Positions 19,227 to 42,029 of a DNA stretch of 64,000 bases are shown in pieces. The notes beneath the pieces were generated by a model. The model made no database searches and had not been told where the DNA came from. It worked only from the letters and a program-made list of their open reading frames with translations. Source of the stretch: a bacterium (GTDB taxonomy: Bacteria > Krumholzibacteriota > Krumholzibacteriia > LZORAL124-64-63); the NCBI GenBank assembly GCA_024223715.1, contig JAAEOA010000332.1, positions 5,407 to 69,406 of the forward strand, given 5' to 3'. How positions within the stretch are numbered: the stretch's first letter is position 1; each line of letters begins with the position of its first letter. A program made the translations under genes and the position numbers.

Positions 19227-19256
19227 AAAAATCCTTGCTGGTTTGGGTGTAATATC

Positions 19257-19283
19257 TCATCGGCAATAAATCTCAAAAGTTGA
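19257..19283 (-). promoter_or_regulatory. Sigma-28-like promoter
   Basis: TCAA-N15-GCCGATGA. Confidence 0.55.
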
Positions 19284-19292
19284 ACCCATGAC

Positions 19293-20876: not shown

Positions 20877-21700
20877 CTTTTTTTGCTCCCTCCAAACCGA
20901 CCCAGAGAAAATTCCAAACGATGGGTAATCCCTAATTGTGGGTGAACCAGGTGGCTTGTACGAAGCAATAACAATCCTTTTGAAAGTGATAGCTGAGGCC
21001 CAAGGCTTCCGGTGGCCAAATCAGTCCTCATAGCCAAACCAACTCCATCTGAAAGAACAAAAAATAATTGAAAACCAATTTGGGGAACACCATCACCATT
21101 TCGGTCAACAACTGTTGCAAAAGCAAAATCTTCCCCTTCAAAAACCCCTTTCAGGAAATTGGTCCGTTCAGTAAAATTCACATTTTCCGATGAAGAGAAT
21201 ACAGGCCATCGAAGTTCCAAATAGCAGGAAAAGCCGGTCCCATTGTATGGATACCTGAATAGGGCAAAATAGTTTTTCTTTGTTGGTTCCTGCCTTTTAC
21301 CCAATTCCTGAATTGAATGGGTAGTTCCCATTCCCCACTGGGCGTTTTGTCCCCAAAAAACATCAGCTTGAAAGCGGTTTTCGACAAAATCTCCCAGGCC
21401 TGTTTTTTGCCAGGCAAAGATGAATGCCCAGGGAATTCCATGCGTTGTAAGCTGGGTTTCAAAACTCAAGAACTGCTGTTTAAGCTCATGCATTTCAAAC
21501 AATCGGCCCTGGCCTGCTGACCATAGATAAAAATCATTACTATGGTCGTTTTGATTTGCAGGGCTCATCAAATCATGAACCAGGTTTGGCGGAATCAGCC
21601 AACTATCGTTAAAATCTTTAAGGCCACTGCTCATGGCCGAAACCGGAATCATCAAAAAGAACAGAATGCCTGAGCAGATACCAAGGTGGCTTCTTTCCAT
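20873..21700 (-). CDS. Putative small outer-membrane beta-barrel (PorV/PorP-like size), HPxLG C-terminal motif
   Basis: Signal peptide, alternating beta pattern and C-terminal HLVHPQLGITHRLEFSLG. Confidence 0.55.
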   Translation of the reverse strand: MERSHLGICSGILFFLMIPVSAMSSGLKDFNDSWLIPPNLVHDLMSPANQNDHSNDFYLWSAGQGRLFEMHELKQQFLSFETQLTTHGIPWAFIFAWQKTGLGDFVENRFQADVFWGQNAQWGMGTTHSIQELGKRQEPTKKNYFALFRYPYNGTGFSCYLELRWPVFSSSENVNFTERTNFLKGVFEGEDFAFATVVDRNGDGVPQIGFQLFFVLSDGVGLAMRTDLATGSLGPQLSLSKGLLLLRTSHLVHPQLGITHRLEFSLGRFGGSKKR

Positions 21701-23418: not shown

Positions 23419-23448
23419 ATCATACGCAATCCCGGGAGGGGATAAGAA

Positions 23449-25773
23449 TCAAAGAAGTCCGTGGCGTCTACGCAAGAACCATTCACACACCAGAAGTAGA
23501 ACAACCAGAACCAGAAAGGGCCAACCAGCTACAGGATCCCACTGTTTTCGGTTGGAGACACGCTTGCTTTCCCAGGACAATTGAGCCAACTGGTTGACCA
23601 ATTCAGTTATAGAATCCTGAGTGGTCAAATCGATGTACCGACCACCGGATAGTCGATTGGCAAGCAGTTTCAATCTGCGTGCATCCTGTCGGTTCTGAGT
23701 TTCTTCCACTGAGTGACTGGTGACTACCAGTTGGGCCTCAGTGCTTTCCACTTCCTGATCTCCGTGGCCTACCAATTTTATACCGTACCGGCCAGGTGGT
23801 ATGGCGTGCAGGTCAAATCCATATTGCTGACTTTCGGGATCAAAACCAGTAGATGGATACGTTTGTTCCGAAAAATCTTTTGAATTTTCATTCAGGGAAT
23901 GAACCATCAAACTGACCCGGCCATCAGCAATATTTTGTCCCCTCATATCCAGCCACTGACCAGCCAGGAGAACAGGCTCACCTTCCTGGAAAAAAGGCTG
24001 ACGTCCAACAAATGACAGGCCTGACTCTTCAGTCCCATCAGCAAGCCAAACCAGTAGGTTTCGTAGCAATAACCGCACTCCCGAATTTTCGATCTCCCGG
24101 GATTCAGTTTCCACTCGAGCCCAAAAGGCCATCTCCCAGAGGCGACTGCCAGACCAAAAGACGGTCCTTCCTTTTCCATTTTCACCAGTTACCAGCAAAG
24201 GTTTCTGTTTATCCGCGCCCTGAGCACTTGACGATACGGTCAGTAAAGTTTGAACCCCGGGCTTGGCTGTATTCTCCAGAATAGAAAGTACCGGTGGGGC
24301 TTGTTTCAGGAATTCCATTCCACTGCCCTGCCCAAACCCGGAAAATACAGGATGATCGGTGGCTGCATCAGGTGCCGATGCAAACCAGGGACCTTTCACC
24401 CTTCGGGAGGAGGAAAGTGAAACAGGCAACAACTCTCGCAATCCATTAGGAAGATTTTTTACCAAGGACGCTGAATCTTCTCCTGTTGGAGGTAAAACCC
24501 AAAGCCCCAGCCCCGCCCTGACGGCCTCACTAAGCAATTTATAATCCAGATGGTTTTGGCCCCCGCCCCATCCCAAAAGGATCACCCCATCATAAGATTG
24601 CCATTTTTCCAGATCATTCGGCTCCACAAATCGAATCATGCTATCTGCAAAAACCAGCCCCTGTTCAGTGGAATAAACAACGTCCAGAGCCAAACGAGTT
24701 TCTCGTTGAGCAGCTTGAGCAAGAAAACGAACATTCCATCCGGGGCGGTCAGCCAACAGCAACAAACGGCTTCGGGCTTTATGGATGTCAACCCCAAAGG
24801 ACACTTGATTGTTGCTCAGGAAACGTTCGTTGTCGAAACTATCAGCCTGATTTCCCCCCGCTGCACCAAGAACCAAAGGAGAAACCTTTAATTCAAAAAC
24901 CTGCAAACCAAGCTTATCGGGCACGACCGAAATTTCAAAATTTGTTACTTCTGATTCGAGTTTGATATCTTTTTCGGCCAGAATTTTTTCACCCTGCATC
25001 AACCAAACTGTCGCTGTTTCATTTGGCCGTACAGCAAATTGGTTTTGAACCACGGTTGCTTCAAAAGTCACCCGGTCACCCTGAAAAGCGGTCTGAGGGT
25101 AACGTAAATCAGAAATAATTCTATCAGGTGTCCCTTGGGCATCTCCCACACCACCAATAAAGAACTGAGCCGATGAATGAAGCCTCCTGTCAGGTTGAAG
25201 ACCATTCTGTTCCCCAGCGGAAATTGTTTCATTACCATCACTCAGAAGAACAACCGCCTGAACCGGGTCTGCAGCCAAACGAAGATTGACTCCCCGCAGA
25301 AGAGATTCCAGAAAAGTTCCATGATTCACTGGGCGACCAATGACAGGATCTGCCATGTCAAATTCATTTAACTCTTCGAGGCCATTACCTCTAAACATAC
25401 GGCTTGAAAAATTAACATCTAATTCAGTCAGTGAGGCTTCAACCTTGCTCATTACATCAAGGGCAACCTCCCAACGACTAAAGGAGCCATCACCATCAGA
25501 GGGTAAATCCATACTGGCTGAGTCTTCAACTACAAAAACCAGTTCGGGTGCTATTTCAGTTGAAAAAACCCGGCTCAACAGAGGCGCCCCAACCGCAAGG
25601 ACCAACAAAAGCAGTGCTATGGAACGAAAAACGACCAGAATCTGCCTCAACCCCTTACTGGGGTCAGGCTTACTCTGGCCGTAAAAACGTACTGTCAGAA
25701 AGACTGCCCCTGCTGCTGTTACCAGCAGCAAGGGCCAGATCCAGGCCGGTGATGTCCAGAGAACAGACACCAA
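23449..25773 (-). CDS. Membrane-anchored protein with VWA-like and GATase-like domains
   Basis: Two N-terminal TMs, EDSASMD and LLSDG MIDAS-like motifs, a YDGVIL..GLGLWV Rossmann-like segment, and a C-terminal TM followed by EWFLRRRHGLL. Confidence 0.8.
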   Translation of the reverse strand: MVSVLWTSPAWIWPLLLVTAAGAVFLTVRFYGQSKPDPSKGLRQILVVFRSIALLLLVLAVGAPLLSRVFSTEIAPELVFVVEDSASMDLPSDGDGSFSRWEVALDVMSKVEASLTELDVNFSSRMFRGNGLEELNEFDMADPVIGRPVNHGTFLESLLRGVNLRLAADPVQAVVLLSDGNETISAGEQNGLQPDRRLHSSAQFFIGGVGDAQGTPDRIISDLRYPQTAFQGDRVTFEATVVQNQFAVRPNETATVWLMQGEKILAEKDIKLESEVTNFEISVVPDKLGLQVFELKVSPLVLGAAGGNQADSFDNERFLSNNQVSFGVDIHKARSRLLLLADRPGWNVRFLAQAAQRETRLALDVVYSTEQGLVFADSMIRFVEPNDLEKWQSYDGVILLGWGGGQNHLDYKLLSEAVRAGLGLWVLPPTGEDSASLVKNLPNGLRELLPVSLSSSRRVKGPWFASAPDAATDHPVFSGFGQGSGMEFLKQAPPVLSILENTAKPGVQTLLTVSSSAQGADKQKPLLVTGENGKGRTVFWSGSRLWEMAFWARVETESREIENSGVRLLLRNLLVWLADGTEESGLSFVGRQPFFQEGEPVLLAGQWLDMRGQNIADGRVSLMVHSLNENSKDFSEQTYPSTGFDPESQQYGFDLHAIPPGRYGIKLVGHGDQEVESTEAQLVVTSHSVEETQNRQDARRLKLLANRLSGGRYIDLTTQDSITELVNQLAQLSWESKRVSNRKQWDPVAGWPFLVLVVLLLVCEWFLRRRHGLL

Positions 25774-28571: not shown

Positions 28572-28610
28572 AAATAAAAAACACGGTTCCGGCCTGAGAC
28601 CGAAACCGTG
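28572..28610 (-). terminator. Intrinsic terminator after the lipoprotein/BNR operon
   Basis: CACGGTTTCGG..CCGGAACCGTG followed by TTTTTTATTT. Confidence 0.85.
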
Positions 28611-28644: not shown

Positions 28645-30981
28645 TTATCTGATAATCACCAAACGCCCCCAGAAGTCATCTCGTTGGGTCATTTCGACCT
28701 TATACAGATATACCCCAGCAGAAACACGTTCATTTTCACGGTTTCGGGTTCGCCAATAAATATTTCCGTCATGAAGGTTGTCCGGGCCCAAATTAATAAC
28801 ATCGTCGCCCGCAGGGGTAAAAATCCGAATTCGGGAGTCAATGGGCAAATTAGTGAAGACCACTGTTTCGCCTTCTTGCCCAGGAAGTCCGCTTTCCTCA
28901 CGCAAAGGATTGGGGTAAACGTAAATTTCATTCTCACTACCAGCAGTGGCCGCCGGGTCATTTAACAAAATGTTAGTCCGGTTTCCATCACCTTCAAACG
29001 GCGTGAGAGGGTCGTTGACAAAACGAGGAGAAAAGACTGCAATTTGGGAACTGTTTTGAGGAGAACTCAAAGCGGTATTTCCATAATCGTATGAAGAAAT
29101 GGCATAATAATATGAAAATCCATTATAGACTTCTTCATCAAAAAAACGAATCGTATCAGGAGTATCAAAATCAAAACAGGCGGCTCGTTTTGAGTTATAA
29201 CATTCGGGTACAAGCTCGTAGTTAATGTTTCCGCAATATCCCTCAATGCATGACTCAGGATTAACCCTATCAAACAGCCCAATCATGCTCATGTTATTTG
29301 GGTCATGATTTGGAGATCGCCAAACAGCCCATCCTTGGAAAGTTTGACAAATGAGGGAAAATTGAACTCCCGAGACAAGACTCCCCGTACTGAAGGAAAT
29401 GTCCAGGCCGAGGTCAAGATCGCGAAGTCCCAGACTGGTACCACTGTTGTAACTATCAGAAAGATTGATGGGGGAATCCGGAATGTAAATACCACCACCG
29501 TAGGAGCTCATCAGGAAATCTCCAGAGCCATCGCCAATAAGAACCAATCGGGTACCGGAATTCCTCAGCGGCTGATTTGCAACCTCACTCCAGTTAATCC
29601 CCTGATCGGAACTAACTAAAACACGCCAAGAATCCTGCATGCAGTAATAATTACCATCAGCACCGTCGCTGATCAAGAGGCTCAATTCACGAATCTGGCT
29701 CGGGTTCGGATTTGAAACCCCAGCTCCAACCAATTGCCAATTCATTCCGCCATCTACACTGCGATAAAGACCCTTATTTTTCATCCCAACAATAAGAATA
29801 TTTTCGTCACTAGGGTCGACCCTAACCGAAGATGCACTGTGTAGCCAAGCTCCATGGTTATCGGGGTCGGGAATCATTAAGGTGCCATAAGTATCAGACC
29901 AGGTTGTACCACCATCGAAACTTTGGAAAACACCATTGGATTCTATTGCTAACAAAACATGGTCAGGATTGGACGGATTTGTATGAATTTCATTGATTAA
30001 CAGAGGTAACGTTAAACCCATTTCCGGAAAATCTAAATCAACGTCAACTTCAAGATCAGAACGTTGGAAGGTGGTTCCATTATCAGAAGAATAAAACAGG
30101 CCAAAGTTGGATACAAAAGCCCAGATTTTATCTTCGGACCATTCCATTGCCCCAATTCGCACTGAAGTGGGGGCCGGTTCAAATGTCGGATCCAAATTGG
30201 CCGCCCAATTTACAAAATTTTCCCCACCATCGGTGGTAACAAAAAGACCGGAATCGGTAGTTCCAATGGCAAAATAATCATTATTCGCAGGCGAAATGCT
30301 TACCCACAAGATATTAACTGAATCAGTGAAGATCTCATCGGCAAAACGAGTCCATTGGGCACCATCAAATTTATAAGCACCCTGGGGACTTGCCTCATTA
30401 GTTTGACCACCAGAGAAAGCAGCCACAGCAAAACCACTTGTACCGTGATCTAAAGCAACGGTATTTGTCTGCCGCCAGGACATGGGTAAATTTTCATTCA
30501 ACTGGCCCCAGGTTCCGGTGGCTTGATCAAACTGAAACACACCCCCATTATTGGACAAATTAATAATTCCCGAAAGAACTCCGTAGGTAATCGGTCCTTC
30601 TGAGGTCCAGCTGAGGGTAAGGCTCTGGCTATTGGCTTCACCAATAATTCCGCTGTCAGTTGTTTCAAAACGCAATTGGCGATCGACCTGATCGGCAAAA
30701 CCACCCGAAACGTCAACTGAATAACCCAAGTTCTCGTGACCAGAAAGAGCATAACAGGTTGCATCGGAAAGCTCGAGGTCTTCCCAACTGACCACTAGAC
30801 CCTGACGGCCTTCAATTTGCTGTTCCATATGAAGGCTAGGTGGCGACACAAGGAAAAGAGTATCGTTGGCACAGGTACTATCTGGAGTTTCAGCGAAGCT
30901 GGAGAGCCCCGAAAAGACCAGAAGGAAAATGGCCAGCAGCCCCAGTAGTGACCGGTGGGTTACCAAGTTCCCAGATTTCAT
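28645..30981 (-). CDS. Secreted BNR/Asp-box beta-propeller protein with T9SS-like C-terminal domain
   Basis: Signal peptide; five Asp-boxes (TTDGGENF, SSDNGTTF, SFDGGTTW, SVDGGMNW, SSDQGINW); CTD IYVYPNP..FTNLP..IRIFT..G..GVYLY..GRLVIIR. Start likely ATG 30981. Confidence 0.8.
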   Translation of the reverse strand: MKSGNLVTHRSLLGLLAIFLLVFSGLSSFAETPDSTCANDTLFLVSPPSLHMEQQIEGRQGLVVSWEDLELSDATCYALSGHENLGYSVDVSGGFADQVDRQLRFETTDSGIIGEANSQSLTLSWTSEGPITYGVLSGIINLSNNGGVFQFDQATGTWGQLNENLPMSWRQTNTVALDHGTSGFAVAAFSGGQTNEASPQGAYKFDGAQWTRFADEIFTDSVNILWVSISPANNDYFAIGTTDSGLFVTTDGGENFVNWAANLDPTFEPAPTSVRIGAMEWSEDKIWAFVSNFGLFYSSDNGTTFQRSDLEVDVDLDFPEMGLTLPLLINEIHTNPSNPDHVLLAIESNGVFQSFDGGTTWSDTYGTLMIPDPDNHGAWLHSASSVRVDPSDENILIVGMKNKGLYRSVDGGMNWQLVGAGVSNPNPSQIRELSLLISDGADGNYYCMQDSWRVLVSSDQGINWSEVANQPLRNSGTRLVLIGDGSGDFLMSSYGGGIYIPDSPINLSDSYNSGTSLGLRDLDLGLDISFSTGSLVSGVQFSLICQTFQGWAVWRSPNHDPNNMSMIGLFDRVNPESCIEGYCGNINYELVPECYNSKRAACFDFDTPDTIRFFDEEVYNGFSYYYAISSYDYGNTALSSPQNSSQIAVFSPRFVNDPLTPFEGDGNRTNILLNDPAATAGSENEIYVYPNPLREESGLPGQEGETVVFTNLPIDSRIRIFTPAGDDVINLGPDNLHDGNIYWRTRNRENERVSAGVYLYKVEMTQRDDFWGRLVIIR

Positions 30982-31118
30982 CAAACCCCTGCCTTTCAAG
31001 TCCAAAATTGGACTGACAAAATTGATTCCGGTTATCCGGATTAAGTCGATTCTCGCCTAACCTGCTCGTTTTGTTCAAACAGGTTTAAATACAATCCCCG
31101 CCAAACCCATGCGGGTAA

Positions 31119-33605
31119 TTATTGTGACACAGGTAACCCGAAATATTTCAAGACCCACATCACAGCTTTTCGGCTTTCAGTGTGGTTAAATCGGTAAGGA
31201 TCAAAACCCCAATAAACATCAGCTTTTGAGCTGGGCTTATCGACAATTGTTTTGTAGGACATGAATCCAAAGACCTTACCAGTAACCCTGCTGGTTCCTC
31301 TGGGAACTTCAATTCCCTGATCCTGGTCCACATAAGTGGTCAGGCCCATGCCACCACAAATTTCATCCAGTTGAGTGCTGGAATACCAGCTACCAGGCCA
31401 GGCATCGTCACCATTTTCCCAGATCAATTCGCGCATCCAGTCAAAGCGGGCTTTGCCGGTAAACATTGATTCAACACAACGACCCTCGTAACCATAATCC
31501 CCACAATCCTGGAGAATAATGGTTGTTGGAGTGTCGGAAATGGCATCATCCACAAATTCATCACCCGGGAAGGGGAAGTCGACATTCAGCAGGGTGTCGA
31601 GTCCGGCATCAACCATAGGGTCTCGCCAATCAATAAGTTCGTCCGTTTCAAAAATATCAGCAATGGCGGTTGTGGCAATTGCATGATGAGAACGGAACTC
31701 AGGAATCAATTGAATTTCCTTTAGCCCGGCACAAGTAACACGCCGGTCAGTTGAAGCAGCCAAACTCCGCCCGTAAATATTCTTATTCAGAGGGGTACTC
31801 CAATCAAGCGAAGCAATCCCGACTGTGGCATAAGGGTACATTAAAGGCCCACGCATTACTTCCGTACCATCGGCCAATTCTTTTTCGCCAAAACCAATGA
31901 CGAAGTTAACATCATTCATCGAGTAAAATTCCTGCGTGCTGGTAAAAATCAAAGGTGTCATATAAGTTCGCACTTCCAGGAAAGATTCCAAGGAGCGAGC
32001 ACCCACCATAAAGATGTTTCCACCTTGTTCTTGATATGGCGCCAACCAAACAAACTTATCAGCTGGTCCCTCAGGCCGAAATTTCTGAAACATCAGCTGC
32101 TGGGAATTTGATCGGGCAAAAATTAGCGCAGCTTTGTAATTCACCAAAGTTTCATAATCGAAAGAACCATTACTGTGATCGTAGAAATCCCTCGGCCAGC
32201 TAAATCCATCAATACCCCCCACATCACCCAGGAACTGCCAGTAGGCATTACGATAGTCTTCCCTATCGTAAACAATGCTTCCGTTCTCATTAGGCCAGCG
32301 GTTGGACTGATTATCTACAATTTGATCAACCAACGCCAGAGACAACTGGTTTTCGCGAGCAACAAAAGGAATAACTGACAAATTCCAACGAGCAACAGTA
32401 ATTCCACCTGAATCATCTTTGACCTTAATCCAAAAAGAGTGCTCCCCATTTGCAAAAGCCCGCACTTCAGCAAAACGGTTTTGCTCTGTCAGTCCTTCAG
32501 GCACGGCCCAACCCAGGTCATTTTCATCATCCACGTCATCCAGATCCCAACCGTGCCGCATGGAAACGATGTTTCCATTATAAGAGTCGGCTCTGGCCGT
32601 CCAGCGGAAATTAAGAGGCTGTCCTGTGGCAATATTACTGTTAGCAAGAATTCCGCTTTCACCAAGAAAATCTTCTGTCACCTCAATACTGGGACTGAAT
32701 CGGGTATGGGAGATTCGGAAATTCAGGACTTGCTGACTATATGTGCGGCCAATACTTTTGGCCCCTGCGGTATCGCGCACCTGAACAGCAAAAAGTTTAT
32801 ATTCTCCGTCAGCCTGGTTGCCATAGCTGATTTTTCGGTCTTCATCTGAGACCGAAAAAGTTTGCCAGGAACTCCATTCAGGATCTTCGAAATCAATAAG
32901 CTCATCAACGTGTGCCTCATACTGATAATCGGATCCGACATTTACAGGAGACCCATTTTCCATAATCACTGCAGGAACAAGCAGAAAACGGATTTTTGTA
33001 GGTATGCCCTGTTCATAATCAGAATCGTTTCCTTCATAGGAAAGATTCAAAGTTGCAGGTGCTGTCATCGCAGTTGGAGAAGGGGGTGTATCGGTAAATC
33101 TACCCCTACAAGTTGGCAAAATAGTTGTTGAGGTGAAGGAAATCATAGCAGGTGAATCATCCACCCCACCATCTTCATCCATGCACCTTACAAAGAAAGA
33201 ATGAGACCGAAAACTTCTTTCCTGGCCTTCAGGATCTCCAGGGAAATTTTCCTGATCAGCAAGAACATAGAATGAAGAATCAGTGGCTGTGGTAAACCGC
33301 CAAGGATTAATTTCTGCCCCTGTTAATGGATCAAAGGTCAGAGTATCACGGGGACTAATGCCGTCTATACCATTATTACTGATTTTCCACTGGAACCCGG
33401 TAACTAAACCGTCCGGATCAGATCCAGTCCAGTTCAGATCCACTTTAAAACCCGCCTCCAACAAAGTTGGCGGCTGGCCGGTCACTCGTGTATCGGGACG
33501 ACTGTTTGGCAGCAGGCTTCCACCCAGCTCTGTATTGGTGGAACAAGCACCAAGAACCAAGAGCACAATACCAGTAAAACCAATCGCTAATTCACGCCTT
33601 ATCAT
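31119..33605 (-). CDS. Large lipoprotein with tandem Ig/FN3-like domains and a Rossmann-like C-terminal region
   Basis: Lipobox LGA-C; WTGSDPDG, FFVRCMDEDG..DDSPA, FAVQVRDTAG and FWIKVKDDSG motifs; SD GAGGAG. Confidence 0.8.
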   Translation of the reverse strand: MIRRELAIGFTGIVLLVLGACSTNTELGGSLLPNSRPDTRVTGQPPTLLEAGFKVDLNWTGSDPDGLVTGFQWKISNNGIDGISPRDTLTFDPLTGAEINPWRFTTATDSSFYVLADQENFPGDPEGQERSFRSHSFFVRCMDEDGGVDDSPAMISFTSTTILPTCRGRFTDTPPSPTAMTAPATLNLSYEGNDSDYEQGIPTKIRFLLVPAVIMENGSPVNVGSDYQYEAHVDELIDFEDPEWSSWQTFSVSDEDRKISYGNQADGEYKLFAVQVRDTAGAKSIGRTYSQQVLNFRISHTRFSPSIEVTEDFLGESGILANSNIATGQPLNFRWTARADSYNGNIVSMRHGWDLDDVDDENDLGWAVPEGLTEQNRFAEVRAFANGEHSFWIKVKDDSGGITVARWNLSVIPFVARENQLSLALVDQIVDNQSNRWPNENGSIVYDREDYRNAYWQFLGDVGGIDGFSWPRDFYDHSNGSFDYETLVNYKAALIFARSNSQQLMFQKFRPEGPADKFVWLAPYQEQGGNIFMVGARSLESFLEVRTYMTPLIFTSTQEFYSMNDVNFVIGFGEKELADGTEVMRGPLMYPYATVGIASLDWSTPLNKNIYGRSLAASTDRRVTCAGLKEIQLIPEFRSHHAIATTAIADIFETDELIDWRDPMVDAGLDTLLNVDFPFPGDEFVDDAISDTPTTIILQDCGDYGYEGRCVESMFTGKARFDWMRELIWENGDDAWPGSWYSSTQLDEICGGMGLTTYVDQDQGIEVPRGTSRVTGKVFGFMSYKTIVDKPSSKADVYWGFDPYRFNHTESRKAVMWVLKYFGLPVSQ

Positions 33606-33656
33606 TTAAGTTTCTCCTCGAAACATTTGGTCGTCTCTAGTGACACACGGTCTAAT

Positions 33657-36035
33657 TTACTGAGAATCAGCACATTGCATTTCATCGCCAACACCGTTGA
33701 GGAAAATCACCTCAAAATGTTGAGTAGCAGGGGCAAGATTACCATCACCGTCAAATAACGAGCTATCCATTGCCCCGCTGCTTAATCCCATGGACAGGGA
33801 AATATCTACATAGCTGCTATTGTCACAGTCTCGCCAGGTGCCTGAATTCAAGCCCCCGGGAGGCCGGATATTATCAAACATGTGATATTTTGCCGGTCTT
33901 GTAGGTGACAGGTTGCACTTGGCTTGATCAATAGCAATGGCCTGCACTGATCCTGAGCTCATTTGTCTCAAACTAATATTAATGAGTTCCTGATTTAGTG
34001 CGGAATCAGGTCCATATTCACCCGTTTGGGCACCCATCATATAGGAAAAAGTAACGGCACCGTTATTTGCCAAATCCTGGGGTAAATAGAAGTCCACACG
34101 GATTTTCCACAAGCCGTCTGATTGGCTGATTTCAATACCCTCCGCACTGGATGGTTCACCCCAGGTCGGATCATAAATGTCATCCGTTCCCCCACCATCC
34201 AAAATGGTATTGGCCGGATCGCAATCATAATCAACCTGGTAACGAAGGGCACCCATTCGGCTTTCTGGAATGTTAACGGTATTGATCCAAGCCTCACGTT
34301 CATCATCTTTTCCATGCATTAACATGGTCATGGAATAACGATTCACCTGGAAATAGTAGTAGTTCTCAACATTGTCTGGACTATCAACAATGGAAGTTGC
34401 CCTCGATGGTCCCTTGCTGATAGAAAGATAAGCAATACCCTCAGTAGGGGTCAATGCCGTAATTTGATCCGGATCATAGGGTGTACCTGATTTTACAACA
34501 TAAAATTTTGTCGTGTCGGCAAAACAAGGATGCCCAGACACATCATGATAATAACAGGCTAAGGTTTCATCATAGGCAGACCCATCCTCACCCAAGTTGG
34601 GCAACAATTCAACACATTGCAAACAAGGAGGATATCCTACATGAAAGCTTAATTCGGCCGGTGTACCGTCGCGTCGCTCATGCTCATCAACAGCCTGCAT
34701 TTTAAAGGTAAACTCTGTACTTGGGCCCACCAGGAAACCAAGAGTATCGGCATACCATCCGGTCAATCCGGCATCCCAGGTAGGATCGTAATCAATGGCA
34801 CCAGCACCGGAGGAGAATGAGAATGGATTACCTGTATAGTTGGTTCTAAGACCATCAACCACACCTGTCATTCCCATTTGGAAATCAGGGTCAAGCAAAA
34901 GATCATCATCATGATCTTTGGCCAAAGCTTTGAAAACCACATAACTTCGGTCAGGAATACGATCCCCGGCCACAAAAGGAACATGAGTGTGAGTTGGATC
35001 ATTCAGCTGAATATAGTAAGGGTACACTTCAGTATCTTCTGGGTGATCCCAATCGGTTTCACCATTCAAAAGAATGGTTTCAGGATCTCGATTAACTACG
35101 AATTCAAAATTTCTGGAAACGGTACCAACTTCAACACCGGCAACATCAATGGAATTGATTCTCAAGTGAATGGAACCGCTATCGAGTTCTTTTCCAAATG
35201 GATCTGAACTGGAATCGTCGTTTCTAAATAGCAAACTGTTGATTTCAGCATAATAGGAAAAGCTATCACCTGTTGCTTCGTTAAAACGCCTGGGGTGCCA
35301 GCAGTCATCGAAAGGACCACATTCTCCACCAATATCCCCCATCAAGCGCCATTTATAACCAAAAAGTCCATCGTCACGGGGAGCAACTGTATCTACTTGA
35401 GCCAGTGCAACAGGGTCGTATCCCAGCACATTGGGAGTACTGCCTTTCCAGTGCAACTGATAAGACTGCCCAAAACCAACAGTGTCGGCAACGCCAGAGG
35501 CCAAGGCAATGGTATCGTTTCCGTCAATACGGAAAAAGCTGATTTGAGGAGTTCCAAGGGTATTTGAGAAAAAATGCAACCGTGCAGGAGTACGATCAAA
35601 GTCCCCGCGGTCATCCATTGCCACCATATGGAAAGTCATGTCCACAGAAGGCGACGTGCCTTGGTTGATTTGAAAATCAAAAATGGAATCAGTTTTGCTC
35701 GTCCAATGACCAATGGTCAGATGGTCGATATCCAGGGCTGGATTGAACCGAGAATCTTCTTCATCATCCGATGTGTCTTCATTTTGCACACTGGTATCGG
35801 TCAGTGCCCAAACAAAACGATCCACCACTCCATCTTCATCACTGCCATACCAGAACATATGGTAGTGGTAATAACCACCACCACCTTCGAGGGGGGCACC
35901 AATAAGAAAGGTCTCCGGAGCGCGATTTACAATAACTGCCTCGGGCTCAAAGGCCCGGCAACCGGCAAAGAAGCTCAACGCCATAATTGCCAAAGATAAT
36001 ATTAACCACCAGAAAAGCTTGGGTCTGGTATTCAT
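33657..36035 (-). CDS. Large lipoprotein with tandem Ig/FN3-like domains, paralog of the downstream gene
   Basis: ATG 36035 after AAGGGG; lipobox FAG-C; WYGSDEDG, FHMVAMDDRG.FDRTPA and FKMQAVDEH..RDGTPA motifs. Confidence 0.8.
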   Translation of the reverse strand: MNTRPKLFWWLILSLAIMALSFFAGCRAFEPEAVIVNRAPETFLIGAPLEGGGGYYHYHMFWYGSDEDGVVDRFVWALTDTSVQNEDTSDDEEDSRFNPALDIDHLTIGHWTSKTDSIFDFQINQGTSPSVDMTFHMVAMDDRGDFDRTPARLHFFSNTLGTPQISFFRIDGNDTIALASGVADTVGFGQSYQLHWKGSTPNVLGYDPVALAQVDTVAPRDDGLFGYKWRLMGDIGGECGPFDDCWHPRRFNEATGDSFSYYAEINSLLFRNDDSSSDPFGKELDSGSIHLRINSIDVAGVEVGTVSRNFEFVVNRDPETILLNGETDWDHPEDTEVYPYYIQLNDPTHTHVPFVAGDRIPDRSYVVFKALAKDHDDDLLLDPDFQMGMTGVVDGLRTNYTGNPFSFSSGAGAIDYDPTWDAGLTGWYADTLGFLVGPSTEFTFKMQAVDEHERRDGTPAELSFHVGYPPCLQCVELLPNLGEDGSAYDETLACYYHDVSGHPCFADTTKFYVVKSGTPYDPDQITALTPTEGIAYLSISKGPSRATSIVDSPDNVENYYYFQVNRYSMTMLMHGKDDEREAWINTVNIPESRMGALRYQVDYDCDPANTILDGGGTDDIYDPTWGEPSSAEGIEISQSDGLWKIRVDFYLPQDLANNGAVTFSYMMGAQTGEYGPDSALNQELINISLRQMSSGSVQAIAIDQAKCNLSPTRPAKYHMFDNIRPPGGLNSGTWRDCDNSSYVDISLSMGLSSGAMDSSLFDGDGNLAPATQHFEVIFLNGVGDEMQCADSQ

Positions 36036-36239
36036 ACTTGTGTACGTCCCCTTACAAGTGCCGCGACGACTTCGGGTTAAATACCGCCTTGGGGTGGGCC
36101 TATGGGGCAACCAGCACTCACCTATCATTGCTGATAAGGTCGTGTGGAAGAACCAATAGCTGGGGGCCAATTGGCGGTAGCAATCCGGTCTGTGAAAAAC
36201 TACTTCCGGATTTTGGAACTGTCACTGTCTGACCCATGA

Positions 36240-36269
36240 AATATAGGGATTTAGGCCATCATGTGTCAA
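36240..36269 (-). promoter_or_regulatory. Sigma-70-type promoter of the lipoprotein operon
   Basis: TTGACA-N18-TATATT, about 200 nt upstream of the start. Confidence 0.6.
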
Positions 36270-36309
36270 CCTCAAGGTTTTTTTATTTGATGAAAAATTA
36301 AGAATAATT

Positions 36310-36343
36310 AAAAAAAAGGGAGCACTCCCGAAGGAGTGCTCCC
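36310..36343 (-). terminator. Strong intrinsic terminator
   Basis: GGGAGCACTCC-TTCG-GGAGTGCTCCC followed by T8 (perfect 11-bp stem, UUCG loop). Confidence 0.95.
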
Positions 36344-36374
36344 AAACAGCCAAGCAAAGATTCTCAAATGAGAA

Positions 36375-39300
36375 TTACTTCACCAATGCCATTTTGTTGA
36401 TCGATACTTCGCCAGCAGTGCGTGCTTCGTAGAAGTACACACCGGAGGAGACGCTGGAACCCTGGTCGTTGGTACCGTCCCACATGATGTGGCCGGCGCC
36501 AGCAGCGCGGGATTCGTCGATCAGAGTCTTAACCAGTTCGCCACGAACATTGTAAATTTTCATGCTCAAGTGGCCTGCTTTAGGCATGTTGAACTGAATT
36601 TTAGTGCTCGGGTTGAAAGGGTTAGGATAGTTGCTGGCGACGAATTTCTCGGCGTCAGGCACATCGGAAGGAACCAGAACACCGGTATCGAATCCGAAGA
36701 AAGTCAAAACATCGTCAAGAACCTGAACGCGAGTAGCAATGCCGCCGCCAACAGGGTTGTCAATGTCAGTGTAAATGTTCATGAAATCGTAAGGCATGGT
36801 AATGATGTTGTCGCCACCAGCAGTTTGGTTCAGAGTTGCAGCAGAGTAGCTGTAGTCAGCAACGCCACCGGGATCTGCGAAACGAGCCAGTTGTTCGGCA
36901 CCAGGACGAACTTCAACAGCATCAAAGGTATTAATACCATTACAACCACCATACGCAATCCAGGTCAGACCAGCGGAGAAAACAGAAGCACCTGTTTCAA
37001 CGATAACCAGAGGAGTGGTTTGGTTTGCAATCAATGGACGAACGTCGTCAGAGATTGGGGTTACGTTGATGTAGTTATTGAGCAGGTTACCGGTGTCAAC
37101 ACCAGAACCATTCATATCACTAACCAGTTCATCACCAGTTGCGAACAAGTTAACTGCACCAAAATCAAGCCAATCAGAAACCAAGCCAATATCATCACTA
37201 GGATCGAATGCGGGGTCACCATTAGAAATGGTGTTCACTCCGAGGTCGCCACAAGTGTAAAGCATGGTATCATAACCTTCGAGCAACAGGTTGCTTGCAC
37301 GTCCACCAAGACCGTTACCAACACCAGATGAAGGAGCATTGGTGTAATACGCATCGTAGTGTTCGCCCATTACGAGACCAATGTTATTCAGGGCGCCGTA
37401 CCATTCGTTCTCTCCACCACGGTTGGCGAAATCATTCCAGAACAGAATGCTTGGGTGGTTACCTTCAGCATCTACCGTAGGCAGAGCATGAACCTGGAAA
37501 CCAGTGTTGTAAGCGGTTGGGTTGTCGAAATCTCCATAGCCGTCAAGGTTTGCAGGCAAAGTAGAGGTTTGGGGATTAGCGTGTCCAACTTCATCGGTTG
37601 CCTCGAAATAGTAATGCAACACGTCACCTGGGAACAGGAAGCCTTCATCGGGCAAGTCATATGCAAAGGTACCGGGAATAATGTTGCCATTAGCCTCGGC
37701 AGGTACTGCATCAACAGAACCGGATGCACCCCAACCACCATCACGTACGGAGTTGAATACGGGGTTGCGTTGCATGGTGTAAACCAGGCGGTTTACAGTC
37801 AAGGAGCCACCAACACGAACAGAAGCAACGTCACATACAATGGAGTCACCAGGTACGTTCAGTTCGTCGCTACCGTTATTCTGAGCAGCGTCAAAACGAA
37901 CGCTGTTTGCAGCCAGGTTACCCATGTCAATCTGACCAATTGTAGGCCAGTTATCATTGGCAATATCCAACTCACGAGTCGACATTCCAGGGCCTTCAGC
38001 AGTGTAAGCAGTCAAACGGACATTATCAAAGTAAGGAGCAGGATAACCATCGTCACCGATGAAGCCCCAGTTCCAACCCAGCTCGTAACAGGTCAACTGA
38101 ACCTGTGCGTGAGTCAGGCCAGGAGCCAGCAAGTCACTGACAACATCGCCAGCGCGAACGTAATCTGGTCCACCGTAGTAAACGAAGTTACGATCAGCCC
38201 AGGATGCAGACAGAGCTGCAGCTTCGGAAGTACCGGAACGAACACTCCAGGTGTAGAACATACCCGGGGAGTCGGGGGACAGATCTTCGTGACGAAAAAT
38301 ACCAAAGGTCAACTGAGAACCAATGTAGCCGCCGCCGGCAGGCCATTCAACAACAGGGCTTTCAATGGCATTGTACATGTAAGCAGCAGGATCGTCGACA
38401 ATGGCAGCACCACCAGTGGTGTTGACAATGTAGCCGCCGGGTCCGTAACACCAGTCCTGGCAATAGCTAGGACCAACGCCCGGAACCTGGGTGCCATCAT
38501 CAATAAAGGCTACCTGGGGGCTGTAGTTAGTGTAACAAGGATCGATTTCTTCCAGACCTTGCCAAATTTGAGAAAAGTCGCCAGTACCCAGAGGGTAAGC
38601 AAATTCCCAGTCGCCATAGTCAACTGAGAAATCTTCAGTAACATCGTAGCCACCATTTGTGCAAACGGTATGGATATCATCCACGGAGCAGGCACCAGCG
38701 CTAGGGTAGTTACAGTCACCATCATCATAGGAGCCATCACTTTTGAAGTTGATATCGAAACGAACTTCATCAGCATTGTCACCGACATAATCGGAGGTGC
38801 CATAGGTATGGCTGTAAGTAAACATTACGCCAGTTCCAATACCGTCAACAGAACCAGCTTCAACTGGACCATTGGCAGTAATGAATTTGAAGTAGGTGTA
38901 ATCAAAACCAGGTTCACTGTCATGGCTAATAATACCAGAAACAGTAATAGTACAACTGGCGTTGGCATCAGCAACAACGTAGCTGAAGCGCATAATGTCA
39001 TTCCAGCTGCTTTCGTAACCACCGTCAACATCGGTAATAGAGCAAGCGGGAATGGTTTCGTCACCACAGTACAGAGCTTGGTTACCAGCACCATTAGGGC
39101 TGTTGTAATCACTCAAGTGGAAGTGATTGACAGTTGGCTGGGTGATGTCCCAGTGGGTCCATCCATTCCAGTCAGGGTTGCCATTAATGTCTTCGAACTG
39201 GCCATTGGCACCGGCGCCGGAACCCCAAGGTCCAACGACAAAAATCGTGTCACGGCCAGATTTGGAAACTTCGGTGCTGCCACCGTGAAACACACTGTCA

Positions 39301-39395
39301 TGGCCAATAGCCCGCTGCGGAAGACCCGTAGCGAAAGCATTCATGGCAAAGACAAGCGTGATTGCGAGGCAAACGAACATTGTGAATCTTTTCAT
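36375..39395 (-). CDS. 1006-aa secreted acidic surface protein with FlgD-Ig/T9SS type-A-like CTD
   Basis: Signal peptide (..AFA-T); beta-sandwich motifs (SEPGFDY, FKSDG..VDDI); Rossmann-like segment; CTD NYPNPFNPSTKI..IYNVRGELVKTL..WDGTND.G..VSSGVYFY..KMALVK. Confidence 0.88.
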   Translation of the reverse strand: MKRFTMFVCLAITLVFAMNAFATGLPQRAIGHDSVFHGGSTEVSKSGRDTIFVVGPWGSGAGANGQFEDINGNPDWNGWTHWDITQPTVNHFHLSDYNSPNGAGNQALYCGDETIPACSITDVDGGYESSWNDIMRFSYVVADANASCTITVSGIISHDSEPGFDYTYFKFITANGPVEAGSVDGIGTGVMFTYSHTYGTSDYVGDNADEVRFDINFKSDGSYDDGDCNYPSAGACSVDDIHTVCTNGGYDVTEDFSVDYGDWEFAYPLGTGDFSQIWQGLEEIDPCYTNYSPQVAFIDDGTQVPGVGPSYCQDWCYGPGGYIVNTTGGAAIVDDPAAYMYNAIESPVVEWPAGGGYIGSQLTFGIFRHEDLSPDSPGMFYTWSVRSGTSEAAALSASWADRNFVYYGGPDYVRAGDVVSDLLAPGLTHAQVQLTCYELGWNWGFIGDDGYPAPYFDNVRLTAYTAEGPGMSTRELDIANDNWPTIGQIDMGNLAANSVRFDAAQNNGSDELNVPGDSIVCDVASVRVGGSLTVNRLVYTMQRNPVFNSVRDGGWGASGSVDAVPAEANGNIIPGTFAYDLPDEGFLFPGDVLHYYFEATDEVGHANPQTSTLPANLDGYGDFDNPTAYNTGFQVHALPTVDAEGNHPSILFWNDFANRGGENEWYGALNNIGLVMGEHYDAYYTNAPSSGVGNGLGGRASNLLLEGYDTMLYTCGDLGVNTISNGDPAFDPSDDIGLVSDWLDFGAVNLFATGDELVSDMNGSGVDTGNLLNNYINVTPISDDVRPLIANQTTPLVIVETGASVFSAGLTWIAYGGCNGINTFDAVEVRPGAEQLARFADPGGVADYSYSAATLNQTAGGDNIITMPYDFMNIYTDIDNPVGGGIATRVQVLDDVLTFFGFDTGVLVPSDVPDAEKFVASNYPNPFNPSTKIQFNMPKAGHLSMKIYNVRGELVKTLIDESRAAGAGHIMWDGTNDQGSSVSSGVYFYEARTAGEVSINKMALVK

Positions 39396-39715
39396 GCTTT
39401 TCCCCCCATCGTCGACTTAAAGTCAACACATGGTTAGGCGAACGATTGCTGTGCCGCTATTGCGTGATTCATTTTGCGAGCGAGCACAGATAGTGGGCGA
39501 CAATAAGCTCCTGGGTACATGTCCTGCGCACAAGTGCGCACCTTAGCCAATTCAATTTTGAAGTTTTTGCAAACGAAAAATTGAGCCACACTAAGGGTGT
39601 CAAGCGAACTAAGAATTGTTCCAGATCATTCTGGATCAAATCGGAAATCTGAGTGGAAAACTCGGATCAACGCACCTCAAGGGATAGGAACAGATTGTCT
39701 GTGAGTCGCATTATT

Positions 39716-39744
39716 ACCTTATCTCAAAAGACAACCGCAGTCAA
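39716..39744 (-). promoter_or_regulatory. Sigma-70-type promoter of the 1006-aa gene
   Basis: TTGACT-N17-TAAGGT, downstream of the glyS terminator. Confidence 0.5.
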
Positions 39745-39775
39745 TACCCTAATTTTCAAATGGTGTCATTTCCTC

Positions 39776-39810
39776 AAAAACCGACCCATTTCAATGAAAC
39801 AGGCCGGTTT
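39776..39810 (-). terminator. Intrinsic terminator after glyS
   Basis: AAACCGGCCTGTTTC..GAAATGGGTCGGTTTTT hairpin. Confidence 0.75.
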
Positions 39811-39833
39811 GGAAGGGTTTCCTTGTGGGGCCG

Positions 39834-42029
39834 TCACCCCTCCGAGGGAGCTACAGCAGCAAAATCGGCATAACGGGCGAAGAGCCCATATATTTCCCGT
39901 AAGAAGCTATGACGAAGAATTCTAAGATCTTTTTCCTCAGCATTCACCCTTACTTCTTCGAAATAACGGTCAATGGCCGGGCCCATTCCCGACAGGAGTG
40001 AAAACACCCCATCATAATTATGGTTGACCTCTGCATCTCTGATGCCTTCAGCAGCTTTCACAGCTTGTTGACGAAGACTTTGTTCAACATCTTCAGGCAT
40101 GTCATCAAAATCCTCACCCAGAGCACCACTTCCACCGTTGCACCATCGCTGCAAGCAGGAATCCAGTTCCTCAACAGGCAACACATCACCTTTTAGAATA
40201 TTCCTGCACCTTTTAAAACCGGTGGCCAGTAATTGAAAATCTTCCCGATCCCGGAAATTGTTCAGGGACTTGACCCATTCCAATGCATCTGCCGGATCTC
40301 GCCACCGAACAGGAATAACGGCCCTTACCACATCAGGGTCCTGTCCTTGGCCCTCGGTGAAGTATCCAGTCAAACGGGTCACAACAAACTCATTGATTTG
40401 TTTTTGAGTCTCTGCAATATCCGCATCCTGACCATAAGCAGCCACCTGGCTGAGGGCTTTCTGCAACGCCTGCTCCAAATTAATATGAACGGAATTGGCC
40501 AAAAGAATCCTCAGAACAGCCAGAACATGCCTGCGCAGGGCATAAGGGTCCTTAGCTCCCGTTGGAACAAAACCCGCCAACCAGCAACCAGCAACATTGT
40601 CCAGGCGATCGGCAACTGATAATAATGAGCTGACTTTGTCATCGGGTAATGCCCCTGTGGCTGACCGAGGCAAGAAGTGTTGTTCAATAGCCCGGCACAC
40701 AGCAGTCGATTCACCTGCCAGCTCGGCATAACGGGCCCCAATAAATCCTTCTAGCTTAGTGAATTCCTTGCCGTCCTTGATCATCTCACTGACAAGATCG
40801 CTTTTGCAAATGACAGCAGCCCTCTCGAGAGCTGCTTTTTCTTCAGGACTTCCAGACCAACCATGATCCCACAGCCAGACACTTAAACCAGCCAGACGCT
40901 TTGTTTTGTCCAAAACTGAACCAAAATTCTCCATCCAGGTTACCGAACCGAGCATTTCCGTACGCTCATCTGGTGATTTTTTCTGATCGAAATTCCAGTA
41001 AAACAAGGCGTCATTGAGGCGGGCATGAAGGACTTTTTCGTTTCCAGCAACAACATTAGCCAAATAATTGTTGCCTCCGCACCTCACGGCAGCGAAGCAG
41101 GGTTTTAACCCTGTCGAGTCATTTTTCTCCACTGAAAAGTACTTTTGATGGCTTCTCATGGCAGTTGTCACCACTTCGGCCGGAAGATCAAGATACTCAT
41201 CCCCAAATGTCCCTAGGAATGGTGTAGGGTATTCGCAGAGGAAAACCACCTCAGTAAGCAGTTCCTGGTCATCGAGTAGTTTAGCTTCTGAGTCGTGCCC
41301 GGAAATGACCTCAAGCAAACCTTTACTGATGATCTCTCGCCGCTCTTTATGGTCTGCAATAACCCCGGCCTCTTTCAATTTTACAAAATATTCACCAGGA
41401 TTTTGCAAAGAGACTTCTTTGTCGGATGACAATGTGCGATGACCGCGCGTTTGACGGCCGGATTTTAAATAATCGACTTTCATATCAACAACCTCATCAC
41501 CCAGCAAAGCTACCAGCCATTGCAAAGGACGAGCGTAATCTAGATCATAACTCCCCCACTTCATGGTTTTCCGGAAAGGAATTCCCAGAATAATTGAGGG
41601 CATTAAATCCTGCAAAACCTCAGCCGCGGACTTACCGGGCTCAACCCTCTTGGCCAAAAGGAACTCGCCTCGTTTGTCCTGCCCTCGGCCACACTCTGTA
41701 ATATCGAGGCCTGCTTTTTTTGAAAACCCAATAGCAGCGGGAGTGGGATTGCCATCGGCATCAAAAGCAACGCTCACCGGTGGACCCTTAATTTCAACAT
41801 TTCTATCAGGCTGACGAACAGAAAGGCCTTCAACCAGCAAAGCCATACGGCGAGGAGTAGCTACAATACGCAAAGAGTCCCAACTGAGGTAATTACTCTC
41901 CAGAGCCTTTACTGTTGTTTTCTCAAAGTGCTCCATGGCCCCGGGAATAAACCGGGCGGGAATTTCTTCACTGCCAATTTCCAGGAGGAATGGTAATTTT
42001 TCACTGTTTTTTAAATTTTCCTGACTCAT
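39834..42029 (-). CDS. glyS: Glycine--tRNA ligase beta subunit
   Basis: [37 protein letters not shown] and [12 protein letters not shown]. Confidence 0.97.

Follow-up and report, generated by a model that had tools for sequence, protein, structure and literature searches.

In Flavobacterium johnsoniae, the sprCDBF genes encode SprB, a type IX secretion system (T9SS) cargo protein, together with proteins that support its secretion or surface anchoring. Proteins whose C-terminal domain (CTD) is of type B are described as associating with PorP-like proteins (PMC9143113). In passages on the attachment complex of Porphyromonas gingivalis, PorU, PorV, PorQ and PorZ are described as anchoring cargo to the cell surface through anionic lipopolysaccharide (A-LPS) (PMC10947112), and PorU and PorZ as retaining longer CTDs (PMC11285876). 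In Tannerella forsythia, TfsA and TfsB are described as large, CTD-bearing surface-layer (S-layer) glycoproteins that need the T9SS to form the layer (PMC4175972). Here we describe four genes, named A, B, C and D, that lie between glyS and ppdK in a 64,000-nt stretch of DNA (the window) from a metagenome-assembled genome (MAG) of Candidatus Krumholzibacteriia. With moderate confidence, we propose that they encode a T9SS-dependent surface module, or coat, in which A is an abundant non-catalytic surface protein and B-C-D a dedicated accessory complex.

Candidatus Krumholzibacteriia is an uncultured, poorly studied lineage of the Fibrobacteres-Chlorobi-Bacteroidetes (FCB) group, as a reading made from the sequence alone (the sequence-only reading) had supposed. 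We found no paper joining Krumholzibacteriota with type IX secretion and none describing the locus, and main-text rather than supplementary passages of Krumholzibacteria papers mention neither the locus nor a T9SS nor an S-layer. New here are the families to which the proteins belong, the GATase1-like domains in exported proteins and an operon that is fixed across the class. No other set of exported proteins noticed in this lineage is as strongly conserved, and apart from the CTD and the propeller, Pfam has no model for the families of A-D.

Gene order and transcription units of the locus

The source MAG comprises 4.62 Mb in 439 contigs and is 90% complete with 6.65% contamination. A-D are four long minus-strand open reading frames (ORFs) at 28645-39395 (window coordinates, as are all positions given without a contig name; the features given by position in the window are all on the minus strand), with glyS, glyQ and recO upstream and ppdK downstream. 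The products are all acidic, with isoelectric points of 4.05, 4.26, 4.44 and 4.19 for A, B, C and D, and they contain 14, 11, 7 and 8 cysteines, respectively. The sequence-only reading had described four large, acidic, Cys-containing exported proteins between glyS and ppdK, two with T9SS/FlgD-like sorting domains and two lipoproteins. This description was borne out, the CTDs being on A and D and the lipoboxes on B and C.

The same reading had proposed a look at synteny in relatives, and there the order B-C-D-ppdK was identical in all 20 loci compared (20 genomes, seven families). A, complete or truncated at a contig end, adjoined B in 16 of these, giving the order glyQS-A-B-C-D-ppdK; two loci begin at a contig start, so the presence of A there cannot be judged. 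C was detected in 41 of 41 relatives, which span 29 genera and seven families. At class distance, identities were 25-31% for A-D, 34-41% for glyS and 54-63% for ppdK. A-D have diverged faster than glyS and ppdK and yet have kept the same order, so the cluster has been retained despite fast change. In the source genome, B and D are single-copy (D apart from its C-terminal region) and C has one paralogue, which is shorter at its N-terminus.

The locus consists of two transcription units, A alone and B-C-D. An intrinsic terminator follows A (36318..36343; an 11-bp stem with eight GC pairs, then T8) and another follows D (28582..28610; a 13-bp stem with eight GC pairs, then a T-run). Because strong terminators occur only at these two places and a promoter stands before B, the units are A and B-C-D. 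The sequence-only reading had assigned the genes their own promoters and terminators, which is right for two units and wrong for four separate genes. The B-C-D promoter (36240..36269) reads TTGACA-18-TATATT, matching 11 of 12 consensus positions, and TTGACA-N18-TATATT with the same spacing precedes B in 18 of the 20 loci class-wide, including those of a genus mate (G002) and of a genome from another family (G037). Terminators equivalent to that after A were present in both G002 and G037, and one equivalent to that after D in G037.

These data bear on the possibility that the four genes encode unrelated exported proteins whose adjacency reflects slow rearrangement around glyQS and ppdK. The conserved order does take in recO, glyQ and glyS on the upstream side and E774 with a Lamin-tail-domain (LTD) protein on the downstream side, so the whole region is stable. 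We nevertheless consider mere adjacency distinctly improbable. A conserved promoter and a single terminator serve B-C-D, whose genes are separated by short gaps. B is paralogous to C, an exported GATase1-like domain of a rare kind is common to A and C, the rates at which A-D diverge are similar, and a paralogue of C again lies beside a CTD cargo gene.

Gene A: expression signals and protein folds

Gene A (36375..39395) encodes a secreted protein of 1006 aa with a type A T9SS CTD; within a multicopy family, this is the copy that is syntenic. As a proxy for expression, we used the codon adaptation index (CAI), with 24 ribosomal-protein genes of the source genome (3503 codons) as the reference and the 1934 ORFs with 300 aa or more as the ranking set. 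A had a CAI of 0.776, which placed it at the 97.9th percentile. The corresponding percentiles were 87.3 for ppdK, 40.9 for B, 40.1 for C and 16.0 for D, and the seven other scored paralogues of A fell between 18.7 and 63.4. To judge from N-terminal sequences, GroEL is among the top 30, and other housekeeping proteins that are usually abundant seem to stand at the top of the list. The GC skew over A (36001-40000) was close to zero (+0.018 and -0.018), against -0.07 to -0.20 in the other 2-kb bins of the window, which fits the distinct codon usage of A. From the codon bias we infer that A is probably abundant.

Gene A also has upstream DNA of its own kind. After the glyS terminator come, in order, a promoter-like block, a leader of about 320 nt, and a hairpin with a G6 Shine-Dalgarno sequence. 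The promoter-like block (39716..39744) consists of TTGACT (39744-39739), a 17-nt spacer and TAAGGT (39721-39716); it was read by eye and was not called by a consensus promoter scan. This promoter pattern has a single occurrence in the genome. TATTGAC was found at -308 to -322 upstream of A in seven of seven loci of family f1 and in none of seven loci of other families, and it was invariant in all five genus members.

The conserved 5' leader (39396..39715) holds the hairpin GTTGAC/GTCGAC (39427-39411), directly before the Shine-Dalgarno sequence (39407-39402). Among the five genus members, mean column identity over the leader was 74% with long invariant runs, and its blocks are near-invariant within the genus and more conserved than protein A itself. 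The blocks GCGACTC, TTCCACT, CTTGAC and hairpin plus Shine-Dalgarno are kept across seven genera (all seven loci of the family), with both hairpin arms changed in one genome (G008); in other families, the G-run ahead of the ATG is the sole leader element kept. The leader has a minimum free energy of -95.4 kcal/mol (z -2.5), and two of 100 shuffled sequences folded equally well. An Rfam search of the window, leader included, matched no family. The leader motifs occur once in the genome, and the paralogues of A are therefore without them.

In 32 of 41 genomes, the A family gave between one and 13 matches each. The source genome has at least eight members including A, at 36-69% identity, three of them together on one contig. 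These three, at 391-9825 of contig C47, are 50-69% identical to A; two are in tandem and one is divergent. Their codon adaptation lies at the 23rd to 57th percentile, and they have no A leader motifs.

The N-terminus of A, MKRFTMFVCLAITLVFAMNAFA/TG, was judged to be a Sec signal peptide by reading the sequence, and signal-peptide-like N-termini were seen in 29 of the 33 A-family members listed. The type A CTD (residues 912-1006; 36378..36662) was identified by matches over residues 923-1002 to FlgD_ig (39.6 bits, cut-off 27), Por_Secre_tail PF18962 (27.0 bits, cut-off 27) and TIGR04183 (24.1 bits, cut-off 23). In the structure model of A, with a predicted local distance difference test (pLDDT) score of 81.9, residues 912-1004 match a CTD-like β-sandwich (Z 11.2). 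A would be made from a monocistronic gene as a protein of about 1000 aa, exported by Sec and recognised through its CTD by the T9SS (SprA, PorV).

A single-sequence search against solved structures was uninformative for A except at the CTD, and the body of the protein was assigned by structure comparison with VIA-align. Residues ~50-465 (38001..39248) form a CBM-like jelly-roll with a nested MAM/InhA-like jelly-roll (residues 97-267). The matches were to immune inhibitor A2 (4yu5; Z 12.8, root-mean-square deviation (rmsd) 2.9, 134 residues aligned), CBM61 (2xom; Z 12.0) and the Kgp cleaved-adhesin domain (4itc; Z 10.9). ESM Atlas features for A pointed to A's own kind of cluster and otherwise gave low-score leads, among them to MAM and Cleaved_Adhesin clusters. 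A further β-sandwich follows in the model, and then an α/β domain of the GATase1-like (ThuA/GIFT-like) kind at residues 646-905 (36681..37460). This domain matches 3rht (Z 16.8, rmsd 3.2, 209 residues aligned), 2gk3 (Z 16.5) and IFT52 (5fms; Z 12.9), and the best Foldseek matches for A were domains B and C of GH42, the catalytic barrel not being included, and OST48/Wbp1.

Invariant residues of the α/β domain are D681, Y708, D735, G754, C818 and F824. None of its His residues is invariant, and the catalytic triad of amidotransferases is not conserved; for A, as for C below, the triad was judged by residue conservation. The sequence-only reading had recognised no catalytic motif in these proteins, and the models of A and C likewise show no catalytic fold. 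By the tests made, the body of A would be non-catalytic, combining carbohydrate-binding-type jelly-rolls, a β-sandwich and a triad-less GATase1/GIFT-like domain. Such a protein may serve as an abundant coat or glycan-binding protein of the cell surface.

The products of the B-C-D operon

Gene B (33657..36035; ORF to 36170) encodes a lipoprotein of 792 aa if read from the ATG at 36035, which is probably the real start. Its lipobox, FAGC, lies in the sequence SFFAG-C26, and Cys26 was invariant in 16 of 16 orthologues. Gene C (31119..33605) encodes a lipoprotein of 828 aa with the lipobox LGAC in the sequence LVLGA-C21; Cys21 was invariant in 19 of 19 orthologues.

The N-terminal part of B (residues ~27-306; 35118..35957) comprises two Fn3/Ig-like domains that are homologous to the N-terminus of C, as found with hhalign (probability 99.6%, E 2.6e-24, 257 columns). 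The homology is limited to the N-terminal ~290 residues. The sequence-only reading had called B and C two paralogous Ig lipoproteins, which is true of this N-terminal part and not of the remainder. From its sequence, B is apparently all β/Ig-like. Pfam and NCBIfam scans of B and C matched no family, and a Pfam scan of the orthologues gave no match among 16 for B and one among 19 for C (Big_13, E 0.0065). A profile search with B found 1090 cluster representatives at E<=1e-3. The 27 of 150 listed representatives of this wider family that were scanned had only weak PKD, fn3, Y_Y_Y and Big matches. Against solved structures, B gave nothing useful by single sequence and nothing by profile, and the single-sequence search with C gave nothing useful. 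ESM Atlas feature matches beyond A's own kind were to Ig-like clusters only, and all 164 named database relatives of C are labelled 'hypothetical'.

The structure model of C (pLDDT 82.6) divides into two parts. Residues 35-415 (32361..33503) form three tandem Fn3/Ig-like domains, identified with Foldseek and VIA-align; the top Foldseek matches were tandem FnIII proteins and adhesins, and VIA-align gave Z 8.7-9.9 per single domain. Residues 418-828 (31122..32354) form a GATase1/ThuA-like domain with large insertions. The Foldseek list for whole C was dominated by tandem Fn3 proteins, and the C-terminal domain emerged only when VIA-align was run on all representatives. It matches the ThuA-like structures 8i5a, 5xb7 and 1t0b (Z 12.1 each; for 1t0b, rmsd 3.7 with 212 residues aligned) and 3rht (Z 11.7). 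Its invariant residues are D427, Y490, P551, E683, G800 and F801, and no Cys or His is invariant or near-invariant. The likeness between the GATase1-like domains of A and C was weak in sequence (hhalign probability 33%, E 4.5e-4). Exported GATase1-like domains recur among the matches in glycan-handling proteins, namely GH42 domain B, OST48/Wbp1, Agd3, PelA and IFT52. B and C would be outer-membrane lipoproteins on Fn3 stalks, with C bearing a second GATase1-like head.

The sole paralogue of C in the source genome (contig C15, 30034-33440) is a 699-aa protein without the first Fn3 domain. It has a signal-peptide-like N-terminus without the lipobox Cys, and its gene starts 10 bp after that for a 431-aa β-helix protein with a type A CTD, so that a pairing with CTD cargo recurs. 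An equivalent short paralogue of C was seen in five genus mates.

Gene D (28645..30981; ORF to 31005) encodes a secreted protein of 778 aa from its probable start at 30981. D has an N-terminal β domain and a PorZ-type CTD; between them lie the BNR propeller, which is an insertion, and an Fn3-like domain. The BNR/GH74/Ycf48-type β-propeller (residues ~150-500; 29484..30534) was recognised as Sortilin-Vps10/BNR repeats by the Pfam scan, and by profile it matched GH74 propellers (E 3.9e-27, in three stretches) and Ycf48 (1.1e-10). It is a lineage-specific insertion: seven of 16 aligned D orthologues, those of 431-554 aa, are without it, and the conserved core consists of the N-terminal β domain, the Fn3-like domain and the CTD. 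The BNR propeller named by the sequence-only reading is thus present in the D of the window and is no general part of D. That reading had also cast the lipoproteins as anchors and the propeller as a ligand-binding partner; both are putative roles, and much of the class dispenses with the propeller. As a GH74 enzyme, D was rated unlikely, given room for one propeller (~350 residues) in a region that these seven orthologues lack.

The propeller is also where a set of secreted proteins that bind or degrade polysaccharides comes into question, similar to a polysaccharide utilisation locus (PUL). In such a set, A and D would act on glycans of plants or algae by binding or cutting them, and B and C would be surface glycan-binding lipoproteins. 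The GH74 xyloglucanase matches of D point that way, as do a match of D to the 'F510_1955 family glycosylhydrolase' model (60.3 bits, below the cut-off of 175) and the CBM-like jelly-rolls and GH42-like domains B and C of A. Surface lipoproteins with Ig stalks are, moreover, typical of PULs. But in GH74 xyloglucanases, tandem seven-bladed propellers form the catalytic cleft, and D has room for one, which is dispensable among its orthologues; A and C show no catalytic barrel or hydrolase domain, and SusC/SusD-like genes are absent from the locus. A fixed place among housekeeping genes across the class, with conserved strong promoters, is also unlike variable, substrate-specific loci. A role of this kind is improbable.

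The C-terminus of D (residues ~684-778; 28648..28932) is a CTD of the PorZ/PorU kind that ends in IIR, with I777 and R778 invariant. By profile, it matched P. gingivalis PorZ (5m11; E 2.8e-14, residues 659-757 against 668-758) and, more distantly, PorU (6za2; E 0.36). Against the PorZ model NF052228, D scored 46.8 bits, below the cut-off of 260, with D residues 690-776 covering model positions 669-744; of both the PorZ and the PorU model, it matches the CTD part only. A genome-wide search for a canonical PorZ gave nothing at E<=1e-12. A D-type C-terminus occurs at only three other loci of the genome, one of them directly before a barrel of the PorV/PorQ family.

At that locus (contig C241, ~29650-33060), a 962-aa frame with a D-like/PorZ-like C-terminus is followed 4 bp later by the barrel, which matches NF033709 (184 bits) and has PorQ as its best equivalog (91.6 bits). 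To judge from their sequences, the two are a candidate PorZ/PorQ-type pair of this lineage. We predicted the complex of D residues 505-778 with the C241 barrel. The score was 0.89, compared with 0.00 for the best control; among 80 solved complexes, 58 attained this mark, as did two among 110 pairs that were mismatched. Agreement between runs was 95% of contacts or higher, the pLDDT of the partner was 66-69, and the predicted contact is made through D residues 687-778, the last four residues included. The CTD of D is probably retained rather than cleaved, and it probably holds D on a barrel of the PorV/PorQ family.

Another protein with a D-like C-terminus is encoded at ~25186-27200 of contig C34, beside pyruvate kinase and on the opposite strand. 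D itself stands beside pyruvate phosphate dikinase, and this shared neighbourhood of pyruvate enzymes is probably a coincidence. Downstream of ppdK in the window, a second run of unfamiliar genes (17577-25773, minus strand) is syntenic within the family. It begins with E774 (23449-25773), which has a pair of N-terminal hydrophobic segments and a weak match to PF07090 GATase1_like (24.2 bits, cut-off 27), and which makes a third GATase1-like protein inside 16 kb. The LTD protein (21700-23418) and three ORFs without a family (275, 527 and 549 aa) follow.

Type IX secretion and comparison with known systems

In the source genome, a 2186-aa frame matched the N-terminal domain of SprA (SprA_N) at 57.5 bits (cut-off 27). 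PorU was identified at 480.6 bits (cut-off 420), with PorV (58.3 bits) directly beside it. Barrels of the PorV/PorQ family number three in all, and the CTD of A alone (~846-1006) matches about 140 further loci of the genome among the matches listed. The SprA-like translocon, PorU and PorV for which the sequence-only reading had proposed a genome-wide search are therefore all present, with PorU above its cut-off. Of the three outcomes that this reading had named as speaking against it, namely lost synteny in relatives, unrelated known enzymatic folds and a genome without an SprA-like translocon, none was observed.

The motor and ring components gave a different picture. GldK, GldL, GldM and GldN were surveyed in 11 genomes of the class (G000-G006 and G025-G028, G000 being the source genome), in searches for which no positive control was available. 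GldM (TIGR03517) had no match in the source genome, the GldM_1st domain (PF12081) and GldN had none in any of the 11, and GldL had one weak match below its cut-off (21 bits, in one genome). GldK matched in all 11, at the level of the FGE-sulfatase domain only and always below the 350-bit cut-off. Because no positive control matched, an absence of PorL, PorM and PorN is not established. The profile matches are compatible with a T9SS that could be without PorKLMN, or with Gld models that could be too specific to Bacteroidota. The apparent lack of PorL, PorM and PorN beside SprA, PorU and PorV bears on the question of which T9SS parts are universal.

This repertoire makes it conceivable that B-C-D, perhaps together with A, belong to the T9SS itself as components particular to the lineage. 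They would then be no coat but a module for attachment or processing, replacing PorZ and other components that only Bacteroidota have, for example by presenting an anchoring glycolipid to PorU. B, C and D are universal in the class and single-copy, bar the shorter paralogue of C, and the CTD of D is closest to that of PorZ and was modelled on a PorQ-like barrel in a genome where no canonical PorZ was detected. GldL, GldM and GldN are hardly detected, yet SprA, PorU and PorV are present, and GATase1/GIFT-like domains occur in glycan-handling complexes. PorZ is described as supplying A-LPS to PorU, and both of these proteins as keeping their CTDs (PMC11285876). Even so, we consider such a module unlikely, if the most deserving of attention among the alternatives. 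D falls far below the PorZ cut-off and has a single propeller of another type (BNR/GH74) that many orthologues lack, and B and C are unlike any Por or Gld protein. The separate D-like protein beside the PorQ-like barrel is a more natural PorZ analogue, and close linkage to a single cargo gene with special expression better suits a dedicated accessory. The PorKLMN searches, moreover, had no positive control.

The same searches bear on a further alternative, in which A-type proteins are mobile or variable adhesins similar to SprB or RemA, acting in gliding or attachment, and B-C-D are helpers similar to SprC, SprD and SprF. The A family is multicopy with some copies in tandem, and the combination of cargo and accessory genes recalls sprCDBF. 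However, GldL, GldM and GldN are essentially undetected (again without a positive control), A is compact at 1006 aa and has no repetitive giant-adhesin architecture, and the Pfam and NCBIfam scans of A-D gave no match to the PorP/SprF family. We regard this as highly improbable.

We therefore return to the proposal of a surface module made of A and a dedicated accessory complex. Here B-C-D would form a low-copy complex whose role is to anchor, organise or attach proteins of the A type at the cell surface, where A would make contact with it and may build up into a coat. Several observations weigh against this proposal. The sequence-only reading had made A the abundant subunit, and its codon bias in the source genome and its unique conserved leader speak for that; but the CAI rank of A among the genes of the locus was mixed in five other genomes and is not a class-wide feature: A led in two (G029 and G015) but was second in G002, fifth among nine in G016 and lowest in G037. 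A is missing from the syntenic place in two of the 20 loci (G018 and G034), although both genomes have A-family genes elsewhere. Classical S-layer proteins usually have few cysteines, and A holds 14. The docking score of D may reflect a general likeness to solved complexes of CTDs with PorV-type barrels, the CTD of D being the only one tried, and the docked barrel is encoded elsewhere, beside a D-like paralogue that is possibly its true partner. Finally, PorL, PorM and PorN went undetected in searches that lacked a positive control.

A more far-reaching version of the proposal is speculative and rather unlikely. It supposes a reduced T9SS of SprA, PorU and PorV/PorQ barrels, without PorKLMN, in which B-C-D, as two Fn3-stalk lipoproteins and a PorZ-type CTD protein held on a PorQ-like barrel, act as a phylum-specific attachment machine that receives a single dedicated and massively expressed substrate, A. 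The outcome would be a new kind of T9SS surface layer, with a glycan-binding GATase1/GIFT-like domain in both the subunit and its anchor. If A is indeed the main surface protein, it would offer a handle for labelling, enriching and imaging these cells, and T9SS-built coats would reach beyond Bacteroidota. B-C-D provide a testable example of cargo-specific accessory proteins.

Among described systems, sprCDBF of F. johnsoniae resembles the locus in logic, as one T9SS cargo gene is linked to accessory genes. The two are likened by description, and they differ in that the CTDs here are type A or PorZ-like, no PorP/SprF gene lies in the locus and gliding genes were not detected. The GATase1/ThuA/GIFT proteins (the Planctomyces protein 3rht, STM3548 2gk3, GH42 domain B, IFT52 and OST48/Wbp1) share the fold of the A and C domains, at Z 16.8 and 12.1, respectively, with ~200-230 residues aligned. 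Like GH42 domain B and OST48, both domains are without a conserved amidotransferase triad. Sequence similarity to the matched proteins is negligible and there is no Pfam match, and unlike in those proteins, the domain here is part of a T9SS cargo and of an Fn3-stalk lipoprotein.

The attachment complex of PorU, PorV, PorQ and PorZ is approached most closely by D, whose CTD is most similar to that of PorZ, and by the three PorV/PorQ-family barrels of the genome, one of which docks this CTD in the model. D falls short of the PorZ model, with 46.8 bits where the cut-off is 260. PorZ has two β-propeller domains before its CTD, whereas D has a single one, of the BNR type, or lacks it, and B and C have no counterpart in that complex. 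We know of no counterpart of B-C-D for TfsA and TfsB. A is set beside these S-layer proteins by description. Like them, it is a large CTD-bearing protein, in its case of type A and ~1000 aa; its genome has SprA, PorU and PorV, and its gene shows signs of high expression. Unlike them, A is composed of jelly-rolls and a GATase1-like domain, belongs to a family without a Pfam model outside the CTD, and is accompanied by a dedicated, class-wide accessory operon, B-C-D.

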